Numbered from the stretch's first letter, positions 1-12,633 are shown. The stretch: DNA of 13,635 bases from Chthonomonadales bacterium (GCA_038217285.1 JBBQPO010000165.1:1-13635); one strand, 5' to 3'. A program made the numbers and translations. Notes: generated from the letters alone by a model not told the origin.

Positions 1-53
1 TGGCCTCTTGACGGACAGTCGAGATTAGGGCAAAATGTAGGTTGTGGGTGCAT
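1..53 (-). CDS. N-terminal 17 codons of a probable IS1-like transposase (partial, runs off the window)
   Basis: Hand translation from ATG 53: MHPQPTFCPNLDCPSRG. GGAGG lies 5 nt upstream. The FCPNxxCPxxG start is one I recognise from IS1-related transposases. Confidence 0.65.
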   Translation of the reverse strand, partial: MHPQPTFCPNLDCPSRG

Positions 54-140
54 GGAAACCTCCTAAGTTGGATGTGGTAATCAAACTTACGAAGGACATG
101 CCCCACTTTTCACATTTTCACCGTTTGATGCGGTTCTACC
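1..140 (-). mobile_element. Probable left end of an IS1-like insertion sequence (rest lies outside the window)
   Basis: From 140 the minus strand reads GGTAGAACCGCATCAAACGGTG (IS1-family ends begin GGT), then a GGAGG RBS (59-63) and an ATG at 53 opening a zinc-ribbon-like N-terminus. The + strand hydrolase translation only becomes domain-like after about 140. The other IR and any target duplication are not visible. Confidence 0.6.
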
Positions 141-1330
141 ATACAATCGTGCAGTTGTTCCGATTTCCTGAGTTTGCGCTCCTACAGGAGGCGCGGGTGA
201 AGGGCACAGTTGAGATCAATCAGCCGATCCGGCTTAAGGTCATGTGCAAAGGTCCCAGCATCTGGGTCTGGGCCAATGACCTGACCGTCCCTGCTATTAC
301 GGAGTTCGACAACAACCATCCCTCTCCTGGCTTCGTAGGAATGAAGGCGGAAAACAACAGAACATCTTTCGGCAATGTCGTGATCCGTACCGTGGGGAAG
401 ACGCCGCGCGCACCCTATGTCAAAGACTGGTCTTGGGTCAAAGGCGCAGTCTTCATCACTTCGGAAAGCGTTAACTCTTATCAGATGTGGGAGGAGTATC
501 ACCCTGACATTATAGATCGTGAGCTCGCCTACGCGCACGCGGCCGGTGTGAATATGGTTCAGGTCTATCTCAATTTCCTGACCTGGCAGAAGTATGGGCC
601 GAAGTATATTGCGCACATTGAGGAATTTTTAAGGCGGGCTAGTGCGCACGACATAAAGACTACTTTCATCTTTTTCGACGATGTCGGAAATGTGGATCCG
701 CCCCATCTCGCGCCGTATTCCGCTCCCGTCCCCGGAGTTCACAATAGTCAGATGCAGGGATGTCCGGGACGCGACATCATCGATAATCACTATGCAGGTT
801 ACCGAGACCAACTGAAGTCCTATGTCCAGGCCATCATCAAGGCTCATCTGAACGATCCGCGCATAATTCTCTGGCAGACCTACAATGAGCCGTCCCACGT
901 CAGCACGCTGCCACTACTGGCCGACAGTTACCAATGGATTAAGGAAACCGGCAGCAGGATACCCGTAAGCGCAACGGGAGGGGGGGCGTTCTACGGCAGC
1001 TACTATTCCGATTTTCCGACCTTTCATTCCTATCTCGATCCTAAGGCTCCTGCAAGCCAGGGCATGGTCCTGGGAGACGGCGGATCGGAGCATCTGTGCA
1101 CGGAGACCCTGGACCGCCCGGGCGTGGACGTGCCCAAACTGGTGAAGTACTTCTCCGCCAGAAAGACGGGATGGGTGATCTGGGAACTGATGATCGGTCG
1201 GGACAATTGCCGTTTTCCGTGGGGTAGTCCGCAAGGAGCATCGGAGCCGACAACGCCATTTCATGGGCTCATTTATCCAGATGGACACCCATGGTCACAA
1301 GAGGATATCAAGGTAATACGAGGAAACTGA
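141..1330 (+). pseudogene. 5'-truncated glycoside hydrolase: partial beta-sandwich (DUF1080/LamG-like) domain plus an apparently intact clan GH-A (GH5-like) catalytic domain
   Basis: ORF 44..1330. WQTYNEP (acid/base Glu), LCTETLDR (nucleophile Glu), IDRELAYA..GVNMVQVYL and TFHSY are GH-A-type motifs. IRLKVMCKGPSIWVW...GFVGMKA...FGNVVI resembles the second half of a beta-sandwich. The first ~32 codons fall in the putative IS end and lack a good RBS. The hydrolase call is firmer than the pseudogene status. Confidence 0.7.
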
Positions 1331-1558: not shown

Positions 1559-2572
1559 TTAGGACAGGAGCCGACGCCCGACGTTTGTAGCGTACCATCG
1601 AGAGCCTTCGGAGACCTGGACCTGCCCGATAAGCCCTTTGCTCTGGAGTTCCTCGACCGCTGAGGAGACCATGGTGGCGTCCAATCCCGATTCTGCTCCG
1701 ACGCCGCCCATCGACCGGTATGGTTTGTCTCCCGCCAGCATCGCAGCCAATGCCACGGCGGCGGCAGCCGACAATCCTCTGTCCGTGCCTTTTTGTATGA
1801 TCTGTGCGCGTGTGGGTGGTGCCGGTTCCGGATTTGCATCCAACGCCTCCCCTTCAACTCCTGATTCTCGCACTCGTTTCTGACGCCCGGCAGGGATATC
1901 CTTCTCGCTTGCTGCCTCCACGAGCGGTTTCACCCCCTCGGCAACCTTGTCGGCCTTGATTCCGGCGCTCTCCGCCTTCTTCTCCGCGCTGCGCGCATGA
2001 TCGGCGGCCTCCGTCGATTTTGCCTCAGCGCGGGCAACCTGCGCAAGCACCTTGTCCGAAAGCGAACTGATGAAGGCAGTCGACGAGATCGATGCCAGGA
2101 GGCATAACCCGGTAAATACGAAGTAGAGGGCCTCATCCGCCGGCACAGGCGTCGTGGTGCCAGGATTCCCGCGGATCTTATCGATCAAGTTGCTCGACGT
2201 AAGGTTGAGGAAGAGGGGCACCAGGAAGGCCGCGCCGATACCGGACACGACGCTCCGAGTCATGTCCGCAGTAGGGGTGGTCGGCGACGTGGGCTGCTTA
2301 ATGAGATGACTCACCGCTGGTATAAGCACGATGCCCAGAAGGGTAACGCCGGCAATCCAATACCTGCCGGACGGCATCCAAAAGTACAACGCGATCGCGG
2401 GCGCTGCAATCACCGCAAACGCGACCAGGACCGGTGTCCAGTCTCGCGGTGGCGGAGCGGGTTCATCGGCGCTGGCGGCCGTGGTTACTCTGGCAAAGGC
2501 AAACACGTAATTGATGAGGCCGCCAAAGAGTCCGGCCGAGACCATAATAAAGAACAGGATTCCGATATACAT
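1559..2572 (-). CDS. YLATT-like (YEATS-associated TM helix) membrane protein with coiled coil and C-terminal winged HTH
   Basis: Motifs IMVSAGLFGGLINY, GIGAAFLVPLFLNLTSSNLI and FVFTGLCLLASISSTAFISSLSDKVL; A/E/K-rich helical stretch; C-terminal YRSMGGVGAESGLD...EELQSKGLI...RWYATNVGR. Start moved from TTG 2593 to ATG 2572, which follows GGAGGAAGGA. Confidence 0.7.
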   Translation of the reverse strand: MYIGILFFIMVSAGLFGGLINYVFAFARVTTAASADEPAPPPRDWTPVLVAFAVIAAPAIALYFWMPSGRYWIAGVTLLGIVLIPAVSHLIKQPTSPTTPTADMTRSVVSGIGAAFLVPLFLNLTSSNLIDKIRGNPGTTTPVPADEALYFVFTGLCLLASISSTAFISSLSDKVLAQVARAEAKSTEAADHARSAEKKAESAGIKADKVAEGVKPLVEAASEKDIPAGRQKRVRESGVEGEALDANPEPAPPTRAQIIQKGTDRGLSAAAAVALAAMLAGDKPYRSMGGVGAESGLDATMVSSAVEELQSKGLIGQVQVSEGSRWYATNVGRRLLS

Positions 2573-2610
2573 GGCATTCCTTCCTCCCGTCAAGATAGGA
2601 TGTGGAGCGA

Positions 2611-3726
2611 TCAGGCGTTAATCTCGGCCAACAGGCCGGGATTGTGCTGGCCGATGTGCTCCAATATGGCGCCGATTTGCGTTCCTTCATTAACCCAGCC
2701 CGTGCTACGCCCCTGAAACTCTACGCCGTCGACATCGGTCGCAGCAGAGTGCAGGGCGACGACGCGCCACGCATCGTCGAAGACAGGCGAGCCAGACGAT
2801 CCCTGCTCAGTATCGGTGAAGTACCGAATTCTTGGGTAGATGGAGTCGTAAACCAGGTTGCTCCGGAGCGCGACCCGCTTCATGTTGCCGCGCGGGTGCT
2901 GAATAATGTTCACCGGAAAAAAGTCCTTCAAATTCTGTACGTATATGGCTGCTGACCGCAATGGCAACTTTGATCGGTCGGCCGGTACGCCCACCATCCG
3001 CAAAAGTGCGTAATCGAGGTCTATATCCCATGCTTCCAGTCGTGCAGTCGTCGCTGTCACAGGCTGCGATCCATCCGCATCGTAATCGAATAGCGCGGTC
3101 GTGTGCAAGACCTGGGCGTTCCGGTCGTCTGCGGATGCGTCCGCCTCCCCGTCCTTGCGTGCGTTAATCACATGGTGGTTCGTCATGATCAGGTCGCCGC
3201 CGATCAGCCAACCGGTTCCGAGGTAGCGGATTGGGCCGTCCGAACCCTCTGCCGCAACGGCGTTCCTGTATTGCGGCACGAGCAGCTTCACGACCGCTCC
3301 GGCGACTCTGGCTCCGCCCGCGAGGAAACCTATCGGGAGCGTCTCGTCGCGGTCGATGATCGCTTCCTTTATCCTTGGCAGCGTTGCGGTAGGAGCCTTC
3401 ACAACCGGCGCCCCGTTTGCCGCTCGCTGAACCGTCGACAGGTACGACTTGAGGATAACTCCCCCTGGCGTGACGCCGTAGAAGGAAACGGCATTCCGCA
3501 GCCACACTTCCAGCGGCACGACGCCATCCGAGAGGCGCTCTATGTCGTTAAACAGTTTCAGATCGAGTGCGACCTGTATTGCCGGCGGATTACCGACAGG
3601 GATATTCAGAAGGAACAGGGGCGATATCCCACTGGTCAATAGCGTTCTTTGATTGCCATCATAGGATAGGGCAGCCTGGAAATAGGCGTTTCGAATAGTG
3701 ACCAAGTCTTTGTCTATAAGTAGCAT
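2611..3726 (-). CDS. Trypsin-fold serine protease with N-terminal effector-associated-domain-like region (EAD5-like)
   Basis: Catalytic triad motifs MTNHHV, LDYALL and DTEQGSSGSPVF, plus GTGWL, IIQHPRG..K and VVALH. The ~95 aa helical N-terminus (LDLKLFNDIERLSDGVVPLEVWLRNA) resembles EAD5 from memory. No signal peptide. ATG 3726 chosen because GGAGGT lies at 3737-3742. Confidence 0.88.
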   Translation of the reverse strand: MLLIDKDLVTIRNAYFQAALSYDGNQRTLLTSGISPLFLLNIPVGNPPAIQVALDLKLFNDIERLSDGVVPLEVWLRNAVSFYGVTPGGVILKSYLSTVQRAANGAPVVKAPTATLPRIKEAIIDRDETLPIGFLAGGARVAGAVVKLLVPQYRNAVAAEGSDGPIRYLGTGWLIGGDLIMTNHHVINARKDGEADASADDRNAQVLHTTALFDYDADGSQPVTATTARLEAWDIDLDYALLRMVGVPADRSKLPLRSAAIYVQNLKDFFPVNIIQHPRGNMKRVALRSNLVYDSIYPRIRYFTDTEQGSSGSPVFDDAWRVVALHSAATDVDGVEFQGRSTGWVNEGTQIGAILEHIGQHNPGLLAEINA

Positions 3727-3932
3727 AGCGCAATGCACCTCCGCCAGATCGAAATCGAAAGCCCGCGCGACTAAGGAACCGCCAAACTATTATCGCCCCA
3801 CAATTCCGCCTCGGTTGAAGTCAGAAGGGGTCCGAATGTGGAGCAGTAATTCTTGGGAGTTGCCTAAGGGTCCGTAAACGGTTAACCTCCGTGTTTGGAA
3901 GGTCACTCGTTCTGCAAAATCGGGAAGTTAAA

Positions 3933-3960
3933 GATTTCTAGGCCCGAAGGCCCTAGAATC
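3933..3960 (-). terminator. Stem-loop with cUUCGg tetraloop overlapping the STAND gene stop codon (terminator or mRNA-stability hairpin)
   Basis: Minus strand GATTCTA-G-GGCC-TTCG-GGCC-TAGAAATC, followed only by TTTAACTT. Includes the TAG stop at 3953-3955. Confidence 0.45.
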
Positions 3961-6631
3961 TGCCGTAGCCGGAGTCGCTGCCTGCACGCTCCTCGCTTGC
4001 CATAGTCGATGCGCCCGGCGCATCCGAGACGATATCGGCTTCATTCTCGGTGCTCTCACGGGTAGCTGCGGCAGCAGGTTCGGCCATCGCGCCGCTATCG
4101 ACGAATCTTTCGCCCGCAATGTCCATGGCGGAAGCGCGCAGGCCCTCATACTCCGATGTCGCCGGCAGGGATTCCAGCGCCTGTGCAGCCAGGCCGCTCG
4201 CCTCGTCCGCACGGCCCAGTCGCTCCAGGCTGAGTGCGTGGAGATACTGCATCTCGCCCGTTGCAGGGACATCGCGCTGGTTCAGGAGATTGAGTGCTTC
4301 GTCTGCCTTGCCATGCTGCAGTAGTTCGCTGGCTCGGCGCTCGGCGTAGAGCATCCAGTCCGGCTGATCCGCCTGGTCCCAGACGTCATCTGGAAGATCG
4401 GCCTGGATGCGGGCAGCTACAAAAGCCTGGGCAGGCGCCGGCAGCTCTTCGATCGAGGAGCGCAACAGCTCGCCAACGTCGTCGCGCCAGACCATCTGGA
4501 CAGAACTCGGAGACTGGCCCAGCATAAGCCGATGATAGATCTCTTCGGCACGCGCCGCCGCGCCCTCCTGCTGAGAATAGTAGGTGACGGCCGCCTCCTG
4601 GATAAGCCGCGCAGTTTCGCGGTCAGCCTGGATAATGAGCGGAAGCATCACGCGGCGCAGATCGCTCCGGACACGTAGCGCACCCGGCTCGGCAGGAGCA
4701 ACCATCGCCACTTCCCGCTCCAGTTCGGCAAAGAGAGCCTGCGCGTCATCCTGCCCGGAGAGCGCGAGATCGCACGGACCGGCAAGCACTTTCAGAATCA
4801 GGTCGGCGGTGACGCGGCGCAGAATCAGTCCCGGATGCACGATCTTTTGGAGCCGCCGGTCGTGCACGTGCTCAAGGATACGATCAAATAGCCGACCCTG
4901 AACGGCGACTCCATCCCAATCCCGGCGGAAATTCGACAGGAATCGATCAAGCAAGCTGCGTTTCTTAGGCGTCGGTTTTCCCGTGTCGCTCAGTGTACGC
5001 AGACCCTCGGGGTCCCGACCCAGAAGGTCAATGGCAAGCACGAGGCTGAGCGGCTGCCGGCCAACGTAGTCAATAATGGCCTGCGCAGTGTTCCGGTCGC
5101 GTACTCCGTTCGCTTTCAGAAACGCGGCTGCCGCCGCAGCATCGAGGTCCGCGAGCACGATTTCTTCGGTCGGGAATTGCGTTACCTGCACGCGGCCGGC
5201 CAGTACCGTGCGCAGCCGAGGGACCCGCTTCTGTAAGTCCTGTAGGAACTCATAGAGGGCCGAAACGTGGTCCCTGCTCCGATACTGGACCTCTTCGAAC
5301 GTGTCGAGGACCAGGAGGAACGGTCTGTCCGGCTGGTCCAGGCGGGAGCACAGTGCGGAAAACCGATCGAGCATCTGTTTCCGCTCGGCCTGGAGTGCGC
5401 CGCTTCCACGCGTTGCGGCTGCCTCGGTCATTGCCACGGAACTGACGGGCGTCCACGCGCTGAACAACGTCAGTATCTCGCGACCCAGATCGCTAAATTC
5501 CGCATCAAGTGTTGCTCCTGTGGGAATACTACTGCCTGCCGCCATCTGGATGCTGAGCTGTCTGCATGCTTCCGCAAGAACCGTCATCGGCTCGCTGACG
5601 CGGATATCCGGCCGATCAAAATCGATGTAGACAAATGGGAAATCCATCTTCTCGAAGGCTGCGGCATGCTGCAGGATGAACTTGGCAAGGAGGGTCGATT
5701 TGCCGACGCCTCCCTCGCCTCTTATCAGCAGGGGCGGTCGTTCCCGGAGGTCGAATACCTGAGAGACCGTCCTCGTAACAAAGCGCCCTGCGGCCTCCAG
5801 CAAGCCCTCGGCTTCGACAATATCCACGTAGATTCGCAGTTGCCGTAACTCTGCCTGCCGGCCCTGAAAGTACTCACGGAATTCTCCAGCACCGTTCCAG
5901 CGCCCGATCATGGCGCGAAACGGCGTGAGGAGTTGTTCCCGCTCCACATAGTGGCTCACTTCCGTTCCGTCGGGCATCCACGGGAACGCGGTCTTGGGCA
6001 GCCACTCGCATACGCGCCTCAGGGCGGTCAGGTCCGTCAGGCGCGCTTGCGCCAGTGGCGGCACGTCGCCGCCTAACGCTCGCGCAAGGCATACTTGAAC
6101 CGGATCCGTCCCGCGCGAAGAGTGCTCCAGATTTGCCGCCAGCGCGCTCTGTACCAGCCCGTTCCTGGCGAGGAACTGAAGCGCGGGCCGGCGGATGTTA
6201 TCCGGCAGGCACCAACGAGGCTCCTGTTGCCCACTTTGGCCCAGGCTAAGGATCATCGTAGAAAAGCCCTGTACGGCGAGCAGGGCGCCGTTATCGCCTT
6301 GAGGCGGCTGTGAAGGCAGGGGAAGCAGGTCGCGCGGATCGTAGGAGATCAGCACGGCGGCGGCAAGCAGCAGAGCCGGGACGGCTTCGTGTTCCCAGCC
6401 CTTGAAATCATCCTCGCGTGTAAAGCTGTCTGCGTCTACGCCTATTGCCGCAGGAGCCATGGCGTTTGTCGGGTCTACGCCGACTTCCAGCCTGGGGCCA
6501 GCCTTCAATTCCGACCGCAAGTCAAGGAAGAGAGCTTTAAGGTCTGGTCCTTTACCGTCTGCTGCGTATTGTGCCGCCATCTTCTTGACTTTCGGCCCGA
6601 AATCGCCGCCGGGTGTATCGACCTTATCCAT
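3953..6631 (-). CDS. STAND-like P-loop NTPase, 892 aa, with helical N-terminal region and TPR-like C-terminus
   Basis: FQGRQAEL pre-Walker motif, Walker A GEGGVGKST (5693-5719), Walker B LLVLDTFEE, sensor-like VLAGR, GRQPLSL (GxP), and a TPR-like segment QYLHALSLERLGRADEASGLAAQALE. GGAGGA RBS at 6641-6646. Confidence 0.85.
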   Translation of the reverse strand: MDKVDTPGGDFGPKVKKMAAQYAADGKGPDLKALFLDLRSELKAGPRLEVGVDPTNAMAPAAIGVDADSFTREDDFKGWEHEAVPALLLAAAVLISYDPRDLLPLPSQPPQGDNGALLAVQGFSTMILSLGQSGQQEPRWCLPDNIRRPALQFLARNGLVQSALAANLEHSSRGTDPVQVCLARALGGDVPPLAQARLTDLTALRRVCEWLPKTAFPWMPDGTEVSHYVEREQLLTPFRAMIGRWNGAGEFREYFQGRQAELRQLRIYVDIVEAEGLLEAAGRFVTRTVSQVFDLRERPPLLIRGEGGVGKSTLLAKFILQHAAAFEKMDFPFVYIDFDRPDIRVSEPMTVLAEACRQLSIQMAAGSSIPTGATLDAEFSDLGREILTLFSAWTPVSSVAMTEAAATRGSGALQAERKQMLDRFSALCSRLDQPDRPFLLVLDTFEEVQYRSRDHVSALYEFLQDLQKRVPRLRTVLAGRVQVTQFPTEEIVLADLDAAAAAAFLKANGVRDRNTAQAIIDYVGRQPLSLVLAIDLLGRDPEGLRTLSDTGKPTPKKRSLLDRFLSNFRRDWDGVAVQGRLFDRILEHVHDRRLQKIVHPGLILRRVTADLILKVLAGPCDLALSGQDDAQALFAELEREVAMVAPAEPGALRVRSDLRRVMLPLIIQADRETARLIQEAAVTYYSQQEGAAARAEEIYHRLMLGQSPSSVQMVWRDDVGELLRSSIEELPAPAQAFVAARIQADLPDDVWDQADQPDWMLYAERRASELLQHGKADEALNLLNQRDVPATGEMQYLHALSLERLGRADEASGLAAQALESLPATSEYEGLRASAMDIAGERFVDSGAMAEPAAAATRESTENEADIVSDAPGASTMASEERAGSDSGYGRF

Positions 6632-6637
6632 CGGACG

Positions 6638-7822
6638 CTATCCTCCTTCCTGTACCTTCTGCGGTCGCGCCTCTTCCCAGGCTGCGACCAGACTCATAAC
6701 GGCACGGCCCAGAAGCCGGGCGCGATCGGGGTCGTTCTCGGCAGGGGCGGCAGCAATGAGATCGTCCGCAGTGCTTTGAAGGAAAGCCGACCGATTAGGC
6801 CAAAGGCCCGCCTTCCAATGTTTGTATACGCAGTACTCCCGGAAGAACGCCATAAGATCATCCGCCGTGATCGCATCGATGGTCTCTTCTCGAAGAAAGG
6901 CGCTGTCGGACGCAGGCAATCCATTCTCATACCCGAGCAGCAGGAGCCGCAGCGGCACGCCCTCATCCTGATCTTCGATCTCCCAGCCGAGACTCTCCCC
7001 CGCCAAGCCCGCAGCGAGCTGGCGGATGAAGAGGTGCGTGTCCACGGCTACGTGTGGGCGATGGAAGTTGTCGAGCGTGATGTACCAGCGCTGCTTGCCG
7101 TTCTCGCGCGTGGACTTGGCGGCGGCGGCAGCCAATTGCTGGGTTAGACTCTGCGCGAGCCGCTCCGGGCGATTCGAATTCCCGGTCTCCGCTCGAATGA
7201 TCCAGCCGGGGTATATCTGTTCGGCGAGGTGCTGGGCCAGAGCGAACTGCCCTGCCTGCACGTTCGTGTGAAGATCGTGATCCGCCCACGCCAAGTTGTA
7301 GCTGCCCGCCTGGACCTGAACCAGATAGCGCACATAGTTTAAGGTGAAGGATTTCCCACTGCCCGAGGGACCATTCACAACGAGAATACGGGCAGGGTGC
7401 GCGCCTCCGGGCGCCCGTGGCTTGAGAGGCAGCGGGAAATCGGCCAGGGCCTTCCGCGAAAATGTGCGGTTGAGAAACGGCAGTTCCATGGCGATCAGGC
7501 ACGTATTGTAGGGTTCTCCGCCCTGATGAAAAAAGGGCTTTGTCATGCCTTTGATGCGATTGCGGATCGGCACGAGGAGCGGATCAAGCGGGAACGCAGA
7601 CAGCAGCGCATTTATCAGCGGGGGAAGCTCTACCCAGGCGGACTGTTCACAATACTCCACGATATTGTGCGCCCAGGAGAACGGCACAGGGCTCGACGCG
7701 ATCTTCGCACCGTGAACGCCCAGCGTCGTGTAGATAAACGCGCCTGCGTTCCCGTTCTCCAGAAGCAGTCTAGTGCCGAGTTTGGCGATCAGTTCCTGTC
7801 TCTCTTGGTATGTTAGTATCAT
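6638..7822 (-). CDS. P-loop NTPase, 394 aa, with N-terminal EAD1-like helical domain
   Basis: PFLNR pre-Walker motif, Walker A GPSGSGKS (7349-7372), Walker B-like WYITLDNF, LRLLLLGY. The N-terminus (LTYQERQELIAKL...IVEYCEQSAW...LL...P.DPLL) follows an EAD1-like pattern. Stop is 6 nt from the next start. Confidence 0.75.
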   Translation of the reverse strand: MILTYQERQELIAKLGTRLLLENGNAGAFIYTTLGVHGAKIASSPVPFSWAHNIVEYCEQSAWVELPPLINALLSAFPLDPLLVPIRNRIKGMTKPFFHQGGEPYNTCLIAMELPFLNRTFSRKALADFPLPLKPRAPGGAHPARILVVNGPSGSGKSFTLNYVRYLVQVQAGSYNLAWADHDLHTNVQAGQFALAQHLAEQIYPGWIIRAETGNSNRPERLAQSLTQQLAAAAAKSTRENGKQRWYITLDNFHRPHVAVDTHLFIRQLAAGLAGESLGWEIEDQDEGVPLRLLLLGYENGLPASDSAFLREETIDAITADDLMAFFREYCVYKHWKAGLWPNRSAFLQSTADDLIAAAPAENDPDRARLLGRAVMSLVAAWEEARPQKVQEGG

Positions 7823-8015: not shown

Positions 8016-8867
8016 TTATTCAAACGCGAGAGAGGTTTGCACAGCTTGGAGGCCCGACCGCCATGAGAGGCTGGGGTGATCACGTAACGCGACCCCTAGG
8101 GCAAGCGGCACCCGTGTCTGCGCGTCGATCTGTGCAAGTACACTGCGACGCGCGAGGGAGGGGGAGTTGTTCACTCGAGACAGGTGCGCCAACCAGACGG
8201 AGAGTGATCCGCCTTCCACGAGACGATGGGTCAGGAGATCGGCGCAGTCGGCGTTGGAGAGATGGCCCGTTGGAGAGGCTACTCGGGCTTTCATTTCCGG
8301 CGTGTACGGGCCACGGAGCAGCCAGGCCAGATCGTGATTGGCCTCAACAATGGCAAGGGTCGCCCCAGAAAGCGCGGCCCGTATGTCCGGAGTGACGCTG
8401 CCGACATCGGTGCAGTAGACAATCCGCTGTTGACCAATTTCTAGGATGTAGCCGACAGGCTCGGCTGCATCGTGCGAGACCGCGAAAGATCGCACACCGA
8501 TGCACCCAAATGCTCTCTCGTCGCCGGTCGCCAGCTCACAGGTGGCAAAGGATTGATCGGTGCGTTGGGCAGCGGCTTGAAGGGTTGCGGCGTTGGCGAC
8601 GACCGGAGCGGTGGTGCGACGTGACATGGCTCCAGCCGAAGCGGAATGATCGACGTGCTCATGCGTCAGGAGTATCGCATCCAGGCCGGCGGCCCCCACC
8701 CCGAAACGGCTGAGGTGTGACGCCAGCATGCGCTGCGAAAGTCCGGCGTCGAGGAGCAGGTTGGTGGTTCCGGCCTGCACCAGAAAAGCGTTGCCGCTGC
8801 TCCCGCTCGCAAGCGCATGGACTCGTACATCCGGGCTGGAGAGGTTAAGGTGAAACATGGCAATCAC
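8016..8867 (-). CDS. Metallo-beta-lactamase-fold hydrolase, WalJ/YycJ (VicX)-like
   Basis: LASGSSGN, LLDAG, THEHVDH, SHDAAEPVGY, TDVG, EANHD...GPY...K.RV....GHLSN and LAHLS..NNSP. Start may be ATG 8858. Confidence 0.88.
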   Translation of the reverse strand: MIAMFHLNLSSPDVRVHALASGSSGNAFLVQAGTTNLLLDAGLSQRMLASHLSRFGVGAAGLDAILLTHEHVDHSASAGAMSRRTTAPVVANAATLQAAAQRTDQSFATCELATGDERAFGCIGVRSFAVSHDAAEPVGYILEIGQQRIVYCTDVGSVTPDIRAALSGATLAIVEANHDLAWLLRGPYTPEMKARVASPTGHLSNADCADLLTHRLVEGGSLSVWLAHLSRVNNSPSLARRSVLAQIDAQTRVPLALGVALRDHPSLSWRSGLQAVQTSLAFE

Positions 8868-12108: not shown

Positions 12109-12633
12109 TTATCCGAGCCTGTCACGCCCCCACAGCGAGCGCAGCCAGTTCCTCACTCCAGAACGTGGAGGGACGATGGGGTTGGCGACGGCTTCTCCCC
12201 GCGACATGGTCCTGTCCTTGCCAGTTGCCGTCTGCAGCAGCGCCAATCGCGCCAGCTCATAAATCTGTCCCTGCAAGTTCTGGATTGTACGCGTCAGTTC
12301 CTGCTGATTTTCAAGGAGGCTGCGGATCTGTTCGTCACGACCGGCTAACTCCTGCCGCAACACTGACAATTTGCCATCTGTCATGTCACTTTGACACGCC
12401 AATCTTTCGAGATGAGGTGCAATTTGAGACAGAAGTGATTCCGCCAGTGCCTTATCACTGCCATCTGACATGACAGAGTCAGCAACATAGCTTTCGGTGG
12501 GAAGCTGATCGATCTTGCCGGATCGGAGCCTTCGATAGACGGTTCGCTCCGAAATCCCCAGGGTGTTCGCGGCCTGCCGAACGCGCTGCACCTTGGATAC
12601 CGGTTCGGTATTCACTTCGTGAAAAGTGCTCAT
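12109..12633 (-). CDS. MerR/excisionase-type HTH protein with coiled coil and amphipathic C-terminal helix
   Basis: VRQAANTLGISERTVYRRLRSGKI; heptad-like LRQELAGRDEQIRSLLENQQELTRTIQNLQ; C-terminal VRNWLRSLWG; AGGAGAG RBS at 12643-12649. Confidence 0.8.
   Translation of the reverse strand: MSTFHEVNTEPVSKVQRVRQAANTLGISERTVYRRLRSGKIDQLPTESYVADSVMSDGSDKALAESLLSQIAPHLERLACQSDMTDGKLSVLRQELAGRDEQIRSLLENQQELTRTIQNLQGQIYELARLALLQTATGKDRTMSRGEAVANPIVPPRSGVRNWLRSLWGRDRLG

Follow-up and report, generated by a model that had tools for sequence, protein, structure and literature searches.

A four-gene STAND NTPase–protease locus in a Chthonomonadales bacterium, a probable variant of the CARD-NLR/EAD-coupled systems with a YLATT-wHTH membrane protein

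The DNA analysed here (the window) is a stretch of 13,635 nucleotides (nt) from a Chthonomonadales bacterium (GCA_038217285.1 JBBQPO010000165.1:1-13635). Between positions 1559 and 7822 its minus strand carries four genes, encoding a small helper NTPase (G1), an NLR-like STAND NTPase (G2), a trypsin-like serine protease led by an EAD5 adaptor domain (G3) and a YLATT membrane protein with a C-terminal winged helix–turn–helix (wHTH) domain (G4). On the evidence set out below, the locus is probably a four-gene variant of the CARD-NLR/EAD-coupled class of STAND-protease death or defence systems. It departs from that class in having an EAD5 adaptor that lacks a detectable EAD5 partner, a separate helper NTPase and a YLATT-wHTH protein as putative output. 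G1, G2 and G3 together form a module that is conserved across phyla and also occurs as fusions, and the YLATT-wHTH gene is a lineage-specific fourth gene that lies outside this conserved core.

G1 occupies 6638..7822 (394 amino acids), G2 3953..6631 (892 amino acids), G3 2611..3738 (375 amino acids, with a GTG start) and G4 1559..2593 (344 amino acids, with a TTG start). All are open reading frames (ORFs) on the minus strand, at the positions given in an earlier description of the same DNA (the preliminary description). G1 and G2 are 6 nt apart. The spacing between G2 and G3 is 214 nt if the GTG of G3 is taken as its start, or 226 nt with an ATG at 3726, and that between G3 and G4 is 17 nt from the TTG start of G4, or 38 nt from an ATG at 2572; the latter start gives a protein of 337 amino acids, and is the one used in the window's own database entry (P0006). 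The gaps of 6, about 226 and 38 nt reported previously are reproduced with the two ATG codons. The two NTPases, the EAD-trypsin protease and the YLATT-wHTH protein that the preliminary description had named are all present by Pfam and profile searches, the EAD of G1 being seen by profile comparison only. The Pfam scan took in 11 window proteins, and NCBIfam gave no match above its cut-off.

In G2, an NLR-like STAND ATPase, an N-domain conserved in the family (approximately residues 90–295) is followed by the NTPase, a C-terminal arm that is helical/TPR-like and runs to about residue 830, and a low-complexity tail that contains no EAD. The Walker A motif is intact (GEGGVGKS, residues 305–312), and the Walker B motif is NACHT-like (LLVLDTFEE, with D443). 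Pfam assigns AAA_16 (40.1 bits, cut-off 32.6), with NACHT and NPHP3_N below threshold, and some relatives of G2 reach the nSTAND1 cut-off. Pfam picks up no more than a weak TPR signal (TPR-S, E = 0.0026), but the C-terminal arm of the family profile gives a match to solved TPR proteins with E = 4e-6. No solved structure matches G2 by sequence. The sole hint as to the fold of the N-domain is a match of the family profile to an ArsR-type wHTH (E = 9.6e-4). The model of this domain (pLDDT 81) has no significant fold match, the best Foldseek hit in the PDB having E = 0.22 and the best ESM Atlas score being 0.75, a lead only.

Homologues of G2 number 187 among 8000 scored proteins, and the best 120 of these were surveyed for EADs. 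EAD1 is present in 35 and EAD5 in 7, while 75 have neither, and nearly all of the EADs are C-terminal, following the repeat arm. The window G2 and its counterpart in a Cytophagales locus (L001, described below) are among the 75 lacking an EAD. The closest EAD-bearing relatives of G2 (P0143, P0148 and P0151) carry a C-terminal EAD5, and this STAND family and EAD5 are therefore linked. Beginning at residue 90, so that the N-domain is included, G2 is 38% identical over 740 amino acids (E = 3e-131) to P0173, a protein of 985 amino acids from Archangium gephyra that carries EAD1 and EAD5 at its C-terminus.

G1 is a compact STAND-like NTPase located behind a divergent EAD1-like helical adaptor, and falls within an EAD1-NTPase family. 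Its N-domain (residues 1–136, encoded at 7415..7822 on the minus strand) was delineated by hhalign and modelling, and comprises the adaptor together with a conserved LPFLNR linker. Pfam does not find an EAD in G1, and its P-loop matches are all sub-threshold; the EAD-like nature of the protein emerges solely from profile comparison. The Walker A motif is intact (GPSGSGKS, residues 151–158), and in the Walker B motif the residues after Asp251 are N-F-H-R. G1 can be aligned end to end with a family of EAD1-small NTPases of about 350–400 amino acids, built of an N-terminal EAD1, an LPF-x-NR linker and a P-loop NTPase. NCBI gives some members the name 'EAD1-containing protein', and the Paracoccus homologue discussed below is annotated likewise. 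Compared by hhalign with the first 140 residues of the EAD1-bearing members, the G1 N-domain gives a probability of 98.8% (E = 5e-17); compared with an alignment of EAD1 alone the match is collinear with E = 2.4e-4 and a probability of 44%. EAD1 against EAD5 gives a probability of 1.4%. In the AlphaFold2 model (pLDDT 88.4, pTM 0.83) six helices within residues 5–91 precede an AAA+/STAND-like NTPase, and Foldseek ranks Cdc6/Orc and Avs3 highest, with TM-scores that are low (0.29–0.36). Close relatives are few (five proteins at E ≤ 1e-3 among the 8000 scored, including that of the window). The family recovered by exhaustive search consists of 127 representative clusters; 45 of the representatives have an EAD1, located in 41 of these at the N-terminus of a protein of 300–460 amino acids, and none has an EAD5. 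Searches did not connect EAD1 proteins by sequence with the bacterial CARD-like domains of solved structure.

Both domains of G3 are assigned by Pfam well above threshold, EAD5 at residues 7–139 (90.4 bits, cut-off 27) and Trypsin_2 at residues 174–329 (68.5 bits, cut-off 27.6). The catalytic residues H189, D242 and S315 are intact, the triad is conserved in the proteases of the Cytophagales and Paracoccus loci, and there is weak similarity in the PDB to glutamyl endopeptidase and V8-type proteases. G3 has no signal peptide or transmembrane segment and is therefore cytoplasmic. By its sequence it is a catalytically intact trypsin-like protease situated behind an EAD5 adaptor. EAD5 has been predicted to be alpha+beta in character (Kaur 2020, PMC7159879), and is listed among Death-like adaptors in a 2026 preprint. 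A tabulated Niastella protease of 366 amino acids has a 'CARD-like' span at 3–135 that is the size of an EAD5, the likeness being one of size only (Wein 2023, PMC10312443).

The case for a module formed by G1, G2 and G3 is based upon a small number of loci. A genome scan for the gene pattern returned 58 matches, of which one was confirmed (L001). This locus, in a Cytophagales metagenome-assembled genome (MAG), encodes in one direction a NucA nuclease, a trypsin-alpha/beta-hydrolase fusion, a G1 homologue (28% identical to that of the window), a STAND protein (39% over 710 amino acids) and an EAD5-trypsin (43%). The order of the core is that of G1-G2-G3 in the window with gaps of 9 and 39 nt. 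There is no YLATT gene, and NucA and the trypsin-alpha/beta-hydrolase fill the output slot. The window locus is thus not a chance arrangement, because each gene has homologues and the order of the core recurs at these identities in another phylum. A further locus, found with G2 on a plasmid of Paracoccus sp. SMMA_5 (L002), comprises an EAD1-trypsin, an EAD1-small NTPase that is a homologue of G1 (E = 1e-7) and a STAND protein, with stop and start codons that overlap; the EAD1 domains of the NTPase and the protease are 38.7% identical to each other. Conservation of the neighbourhood, which the preliminary description proposed as a check, is seen for G1-G2-G3 in both of these loci and does not extend to the YLATT gene, which is absent from each of the two. 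Right after the Paracoccus STAND gene lie three paralogues (NZ_CP102353.1, 10458–17400, plus strand) encoding proteins of 745–790 amino acids with no Pfam match and no transmembrane segment. These could be outputs of that system, or unrelated to it.

The same components are also found joined within single chains. P0130 is an EAD1-small NTPase-STAND fusion, P0094 has the order STAND-EAD1-trypsin-small NTPase, and P0156, P0203 and P0231 are STAND-EAD1-small NTPase proteins. The role of adaptor that was proposed for the small NTPase in the preliminary description fits these fusions, the EAD1-like N-domain of G1 and the EAD1 pair of Paracoccus. A closer relative of the locus is found on a single contig of 8136 nt from a Chthonomonadaceae MAG, which encodes a YLATT protein (JWL77_3314, 49% identity), a G1 homologue (JWL77_3315, 70%) and a partial STAND protein (JWL77_3316, 62%). 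The YLATT gene adjoins the core on the side opposite to that in the window, and the contig ends after the partial STAND gene. Among named database matches, the best put the window close to Armatimonadota.

EAD5-trypsin proteins also occur with other cores. In Rhizobium phaseoli (L003) one is located beside an EAD5-VMAP protein and MoxR, and another is present on an Agrobacterium plasmid (L005); a neighbour of the latter with 383 amino acids was considered as a relative of G1 and rejected, having no relation to it. On the Bradyrhizobium plasmid NZ_CP083722.1 (L004, 12031–18759) an EAD5-trypsin stands beside a trypsin-NucA fusion, in a cluster that adjoins dpdA/dpdB, queCDE and a PLD-like gene, a setting that resembles a defence island, unlike that of the window. 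On the Pseudonocardia plasmid NZ_CP080522.1 (L006, 4941–8786, plus strand) a 'serine protease' of 1281 amino acids within a MoxR/caspase locus has a G1-like NTPase as its C-terminal portion, and is a further instance of a protease coupled to a G1-type NTPase.

Among described systems, the anti-phage CARD-NLR operons, known from Lysobacter enzymogenes and in Pedobacter and Azospirillum types, share the most evident features with the window. In the gasdermin operon of Lysobacter a CARD-like domain is borne on a trypsin-like protease that is encoded with an NLR-like STAND protein, and the protease cuts the gasdermin in a CARD-dependent manner (Wein 2023, PMC10312443). According to the same source the NLR-like proteins begin with a conserved helical domain and have repeats and a CARD-like domain towards the C-terminus, and related operons replace the gasdermin by nucleases, phospholipases or membrane proteins. 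One row of its supplementary file 2 (Archangium gephyra DSM 2261) lists an NLR-like protein of 985 amino acids, a CARD-protease of 327 amino acids and an 'uncharacterized membrane protein' as effector, and P0173 matches the NLR-like entry of this row by organism and length. The window resembles these operons in that G2, 38% identical to the Archangium gephyra protein, is an NLR-like STAND protein homologous to those listed, with the conserved N-domain and repeats; in that a small adaptor domain leads its trypsin-like protease; and in having a variable output gene, described as a membrane protein in 3 of the 43 table rows. G4, 38 nt after G3, stands in the effector position. The window differs in that the adaptor of its protease is EAD5 and not of the CARD-like/EAD1 type, G2 has no C-terminal CARD-like domain, and the putative output is a YLATT-wHTH protein instead of a gasdermin, nuclease or phospholipase. 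It also has a separate gene for the small NTPase, which is not listed in the text and table of Wein 2023.

The gene numbering in that table nevertheless leaves room for such a gene. Its 43 rows divide into 34 with a long protease (577–928 amino acids) and 9 with a short one (327–373 amino acids). The gene numbers of protease and NLR-like protein are adjacent in all 34 long-protease rows, whereas one number lies between them in seven of the nine short-protease rows, in one case that of the listed membrane-protein effector; in the other two a number is skipped between NLR-like protein and effector. From the gene numbering only, the unlisted gene of the short-protease CARD-NLR operons is predicted to be a small EAD1-NTPase, as in the Paracoccus locus.

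Similar components are combined differently in LypABC of Caulobacter crescentus, a CARD-NLR-like system that is required for lysis mediated by a gene transfer agent (GTA) and lies outside defence islands (Banks 2026, PMC13236601). LypA consists of a CARD, a trypsin domain and a divergent ATPase, and LypB of an N-domain, an AAA+ domain and TPRs; the CARD of LypA binds the N-domain of LypB, and mutation of the protease serine or of the ATP site abolishes lysis. By domain description, not by sequence, G3 and G1 resemble a split LypA and G2 resembles LypB, and in P0094 trypsin is indeed fused with a G1-like NTPase. By contrast, the protease and NTPase of the window are separate genes, each with its own, different adaptor; G1 has a Walker A motif, whereas the ATPase of LypA has no Walker motifs; and LypC, a trypsin-endonuclease, has no counterpart in the window, the Cytophagales locus having NucA and a trypsin fusion. 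The preliminary description saw no named system in the four-gene layout. The match of G2 to P0173, the operons of Wein 2023 and LypABC argue instead for a variant of the CARD-NLR/EAD-coupled STAND-protease class.

EADs are homotypic adaptors through which systems built on a core NTPase are linked to their effectors and signalling peptidases (Kaur 2020, PMC7159879; Kaur 2021, PMC8195603). The window shares with these conflict systems the EAD5 and EAD1 adaptor families, an EAD-trypsin located beside a core NTPase, variable effectors, and a STAND clade near nSTAND1. The Rhizobium phaseoli locus is a textbook case, with EAD5-trypsin beside EAD5-VMAP and MoxR. Unlike such systems, the window lacks the defining like-with-like pair of EADs, which its Paracoccus relative has for EAD1, and a MoxR, vWA, VMAP, iSTAND or GAP1 core. 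The accessible text of the two Kaur papers does not describe a core of two NTPases, and two of the supplementary files have no 'EAD5' entry; this architecture may already be tabulated in the source data of Kaur 2020.

Cleavage by trypsin-like proteases is known to unlock latent nucleases, hydrolases and pore formers; proteolysis releases the pore formers Pepco and EACC1, and also zymogens of the MBL or alpha/beta-hydrolase type (Evans 2025, PMC12642450; Tuck 2025, PMC12799240). A STAND sensor and a trypsin-like protease are common to these modules, to Avs1/Avs2 and to the window, and Pepco and EACC1 are precedents for a membrane output. The protease of the window, unlike that of Avs1, is not fused to the STAND protein, and no effector is fused to G2; the matches to Avs2 in PADLOC (E = 0.005–0.036) are confined to the P-loop. 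None of the 11 window proteins has a MoxR, vWA or VMAP domain. Pfam and PADLOC thus uphold the absence of MoxR/vWA and of an Avs-type protease-STAND fusion noted previously. Judged by domain names, G4 belongs to none of the ten module families in the accessible parts of Evans 2025 and Tuck 2025. The four proteins have no significant match in PADLOC-DB 2.0.0, and neither P0173 nor the other relatives are recognised; as PADLOC also fails on P0173, its blank says little.

G4 has a YLATT domain (PF20303; 95.4 bits, cut-off 26.7) that is matched in two stretches, with an insertion of two transmembrane segments between them. Five hydrophobic segments are identified by hydropathy (9–27, 55–73, 80–98, 114–132 and 158–176). 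These are followed by an Ala/Glu/Lys-rich linker at about 180–270 and a MarR-like wHTH at 273–322, which is sub-threshold (MarR_2, E = 2.7e-4 on the C-terminal fragment). The nearest ESM Atlas clusters are 100% YLATT. Seven matches to G4 were found, of which the sole full-length one is P0007 of the Chthonomonadaceae MAG (49% identity). YLATT proteins bear varied cytoplasmic tails (TPR, alanine zipper or wHTH), and a literature search found no paper describing YLATT. G4 and the core are linked in two of four loci, both from Armatimonadota. By analogy with the related operons, G4 would occupy the variable output slot.

A mechanism can be proposed by analogy with the Lysobacter and Pedobacter CARD-NLR systems and LypABC. 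G2 would sense a trigger through its repeat arm and oligomerise with ATP. G1, as the counterpart of the ATPase domain that follows the protease within the same chain in LypA-type proteins, would dock by means of its adaptor domain, probably onto the N-domain of G2, and aid assembly of the protease. G3 would dock via its own adaptor and become active through recruitment, and would then cut a latent output protein. This is most likely G4, cleaved in the charged linker between the five-transmembrane YLATT module and the wHTH; we infer such cleavage from the related systems. The cut would free a membrane-damaging module, and possibly also a DNA-binding fragment, and the infected cell would be stopped. 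The weakest steps are the recruitment of an EAD5 protease that has no EAD5 partner, and the part played by G4, as substrate, effector or regulator. A more elaborate version would combine these points. G2 and G1 would be a sensor/helper NTPase pair like sensor and helper NLRs, in which the helper does not hydrolyse NTP and its Death-like domain has been retuned to recruit the EAD5-protease heterotypically, the protease then cutting a membrane-tethered wHTH protein, so arming a YLATT pore or lesion module and freeing a DNA-binding fragment. Taken as a whole this version is quite unlikely.

Several observations weigh against assignment of the locus to the CARD-NLR/EAD-coupled class as a single working unit. 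For the EAD5 of G3, no partner EAD5 could be detected in the other three proteins or elsewhere in the window. A second EAD5 was sought in G1 and G2 by Pfam to E = 10 on the termini, by BLASTP, with a custom EAD5 hidden Markov model (--max) and by hhalign, and none was found. The like-with-like pairing of adaptors implied by the preliminary description is thus not supported, the domain of G1 being EAD1-like. A complex prediction for residues 1–140 of G1 with the EAD5 of G3, run twice with no controls, scored 0.00 and is evidence neither way. The match of the G1 N-domain to the EAD1-only profile is modest, and the shared LPFLNR linker may supply much of the score obtained against the family. The residues at the Walker B motif of G1 are LDNFHR, compared with LDGFDK in the Cytophagales and LDGFDS in the Paracoccus homologue; having no acidic residues after the Walker B aspartate, G1 may therefore bind NTP and not hydrolyse it. 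The identity of P0173 with the table entry is by organism name and length only. G2 and G3 are separated by 214–226 nt with a hairpin. G4 lies beside the core in just two related Armatimonadota loci, at different positions, and is absent from those of Cytophagales and Paracoccus. A search of plasmids by tblastn with a YLATT query found a YLATT gene in an unannotated locus of a Paenibacillus replicon among unrelated genes; plasmid searches with G1 and with G4 gave no match. A defence-island setting, raised in the preliminary description, is visible at none of the three NTPase-pair loci, namely the window and those of Cytophagales and Paracoccus.

The uncertainty over G4 leads to an alternative in which the core acts as proposed above and G4 is a membrane-anchored wHTH regulator or sensor, either a repressor of the operon or a reporter of envelope damage. 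G3 would then itself provide the output, acting on proteins of the host or phage, or an effector gene elsewhere in the genome would do so. This would suit the MarR-like wHTH at the C-terminus of G4, the variety of YLATT tails with one YLATT gene in a non-immune context, and the differing position of G4 relative to the core in its two loci. Further EAD copies can sit elsewhere in a genome (Kaur 2020, PMC7159879), and LypABC is tightly controlled by a DNA-binding repressor because its overproduction is toxic (Banks 2026, PMC13236601). Yet the G4 gene follows that of the protease after 38 nt in the same orientation, in the slot held in relatives by nucleases, hydrolases, phospholipases or 'membrane proteins', and its five transmembrane segments and long exposed linker are like those of protease-licensed membrane effectors, in design only. 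A purely regulatory G4 is on this evidence rather unlikely. It is very unlikely that the four genes are two units that are neighbours by chance, one being the NTPase pair of G1 and G2, the other a protease-membrane protein pair of G3 and G4 that is cued by an unlinked EAD5-bearing core. The 214–226-nt gap with a hairpin at the G2 stop codon and the lack of an EAD5 on G1 or G2 would be explained, and EAD5-trypsin does plug into other cores, such as the MoxR-vWA-VMAP system of Rhizobium phaseoli with EAD5 on VMAP and the NucA-peptidase of the Bradyrhizobium plasmid. Such a division is, however, difficult to reconcile with the EAD5-trypsin that follows the Cytophagales STAND gene by 39 nt in the same order, the overlap of all three genes in the Paracoccus operon, the presence of STAND, trypsin and small NTPase in the one chain of P0094, and the C-terminal EAD5 of the closest G2 relatives.

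The single-unit assignment leaves a choice of biological role. The same machinery might serve a purpose other than defence against phage, as a co-opted switch for programmed lysis or development, in the manner of LypABC in the release of GTA by Caulobacter. That system is CARD-NLR-like, lysis mediated by GTA depends on it, and it lies outside defence islands; the window is flanked by housekeeping genes and has no other defence genes, tRNA or repeats; and systems of this kind have been linked to multicellular or aggregating bacteria (Kaur 2020, PMC7159879). On the other hand, the Lysobacter and Pedobacter systems are anti-phage, three-gene CARD operons are enriched beside defence systems (Wein 2023, PMC10312443), and the 13.6-kb window shows no genes of a GTA or prophage. 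A lysis or developmental switch is accordingly given little credence here, and a four-gene variant of the CARD-NLR/EAD-coupled class, whether acting in cell death or defence, is the assignment that is preferred.

If the more elaborate version of the mechanism were true, the locus would represent a new class of protease-licensed output in which attack on the membrane is combined with a response at the level of transcription or DNA. Inflammasomes have their nearest prokaryotic counterpart in the bacterial CARD-NLR systems, of which few have been studied. The small NTPase appears to be an unlisted component of their short-protease variants. The mismatch of adaptors, the protease having EAD5 and the helper an EAD1-like domain, challenges the like-with-like rule. 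The YLATT-wHTH protein is a candidate for a new output, with which the uncharacterised YLATT family would gain a function that can be tested.

The hairpin noted above (minus strand, 3932..3961) marks the beginning of the G2-G3 gap; it spans the stop codon of G2 and is followed by a weak U tract. It was identified from the sequence and by RNA folding. Its folding energy is –14.2 kcal/mol (z = –2.13), and 7 of 200 shuffled sequences fold equally well. It is possibly a partial terminator or an RNA stabiliser, and could attenuate or stabilise the transcript. It was not called by the terminator scan, and the promoter/terminator scan of the window was no richer than that of shuffled sequence.

On the right the locus is flanked by housekeeping genes, encoding an MBL hydrolase, FtsY, TauE and an ABC permease by Pfam scan, in agreement with the preliminary description. 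The gene disrupted by an insertion sequence that it placed on the left is unconfirmed, because no transposase ORF, tRNA, Rfam family or meaningful flanking repeats were found in the window. The gene for the MBL-fold hydrolase (8016–8867, minus strand) is on the same strand as G1, 192 nt upstream of it and 24 nt downstream of ftsY. The protein has generic MBL similarity, with very weak matches to Avs1a (E about 1e-3). MBL pro-nucleases that are partnered with proteases are typically upstream of their system (Tuck 2025, PMC12799240). The hydrolase was set aside as a fifth component in view of its generic similarity, its proximity to ftsY and the lack of a counterpart in the Cytophagales and Paracoccus loci, and such a role is unlikely. 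On the left, an ORF of 428 codons at 44–1330 (plus strand) begins with a match to positions 129–187 of the 187-position profile of the 3-keto-disaccharide hydrolase domain, which is followed by a glycosidase-like region; from its sequence this gene may be truncated at the 5′ end. A small protein encoded at 12109–12633 (minus strand), between the genes for the ABC permease and an M20 peptidase, has an excisionase/AbiEi-like HTH at its N-terminus and a tail that resembles a coiled coil.

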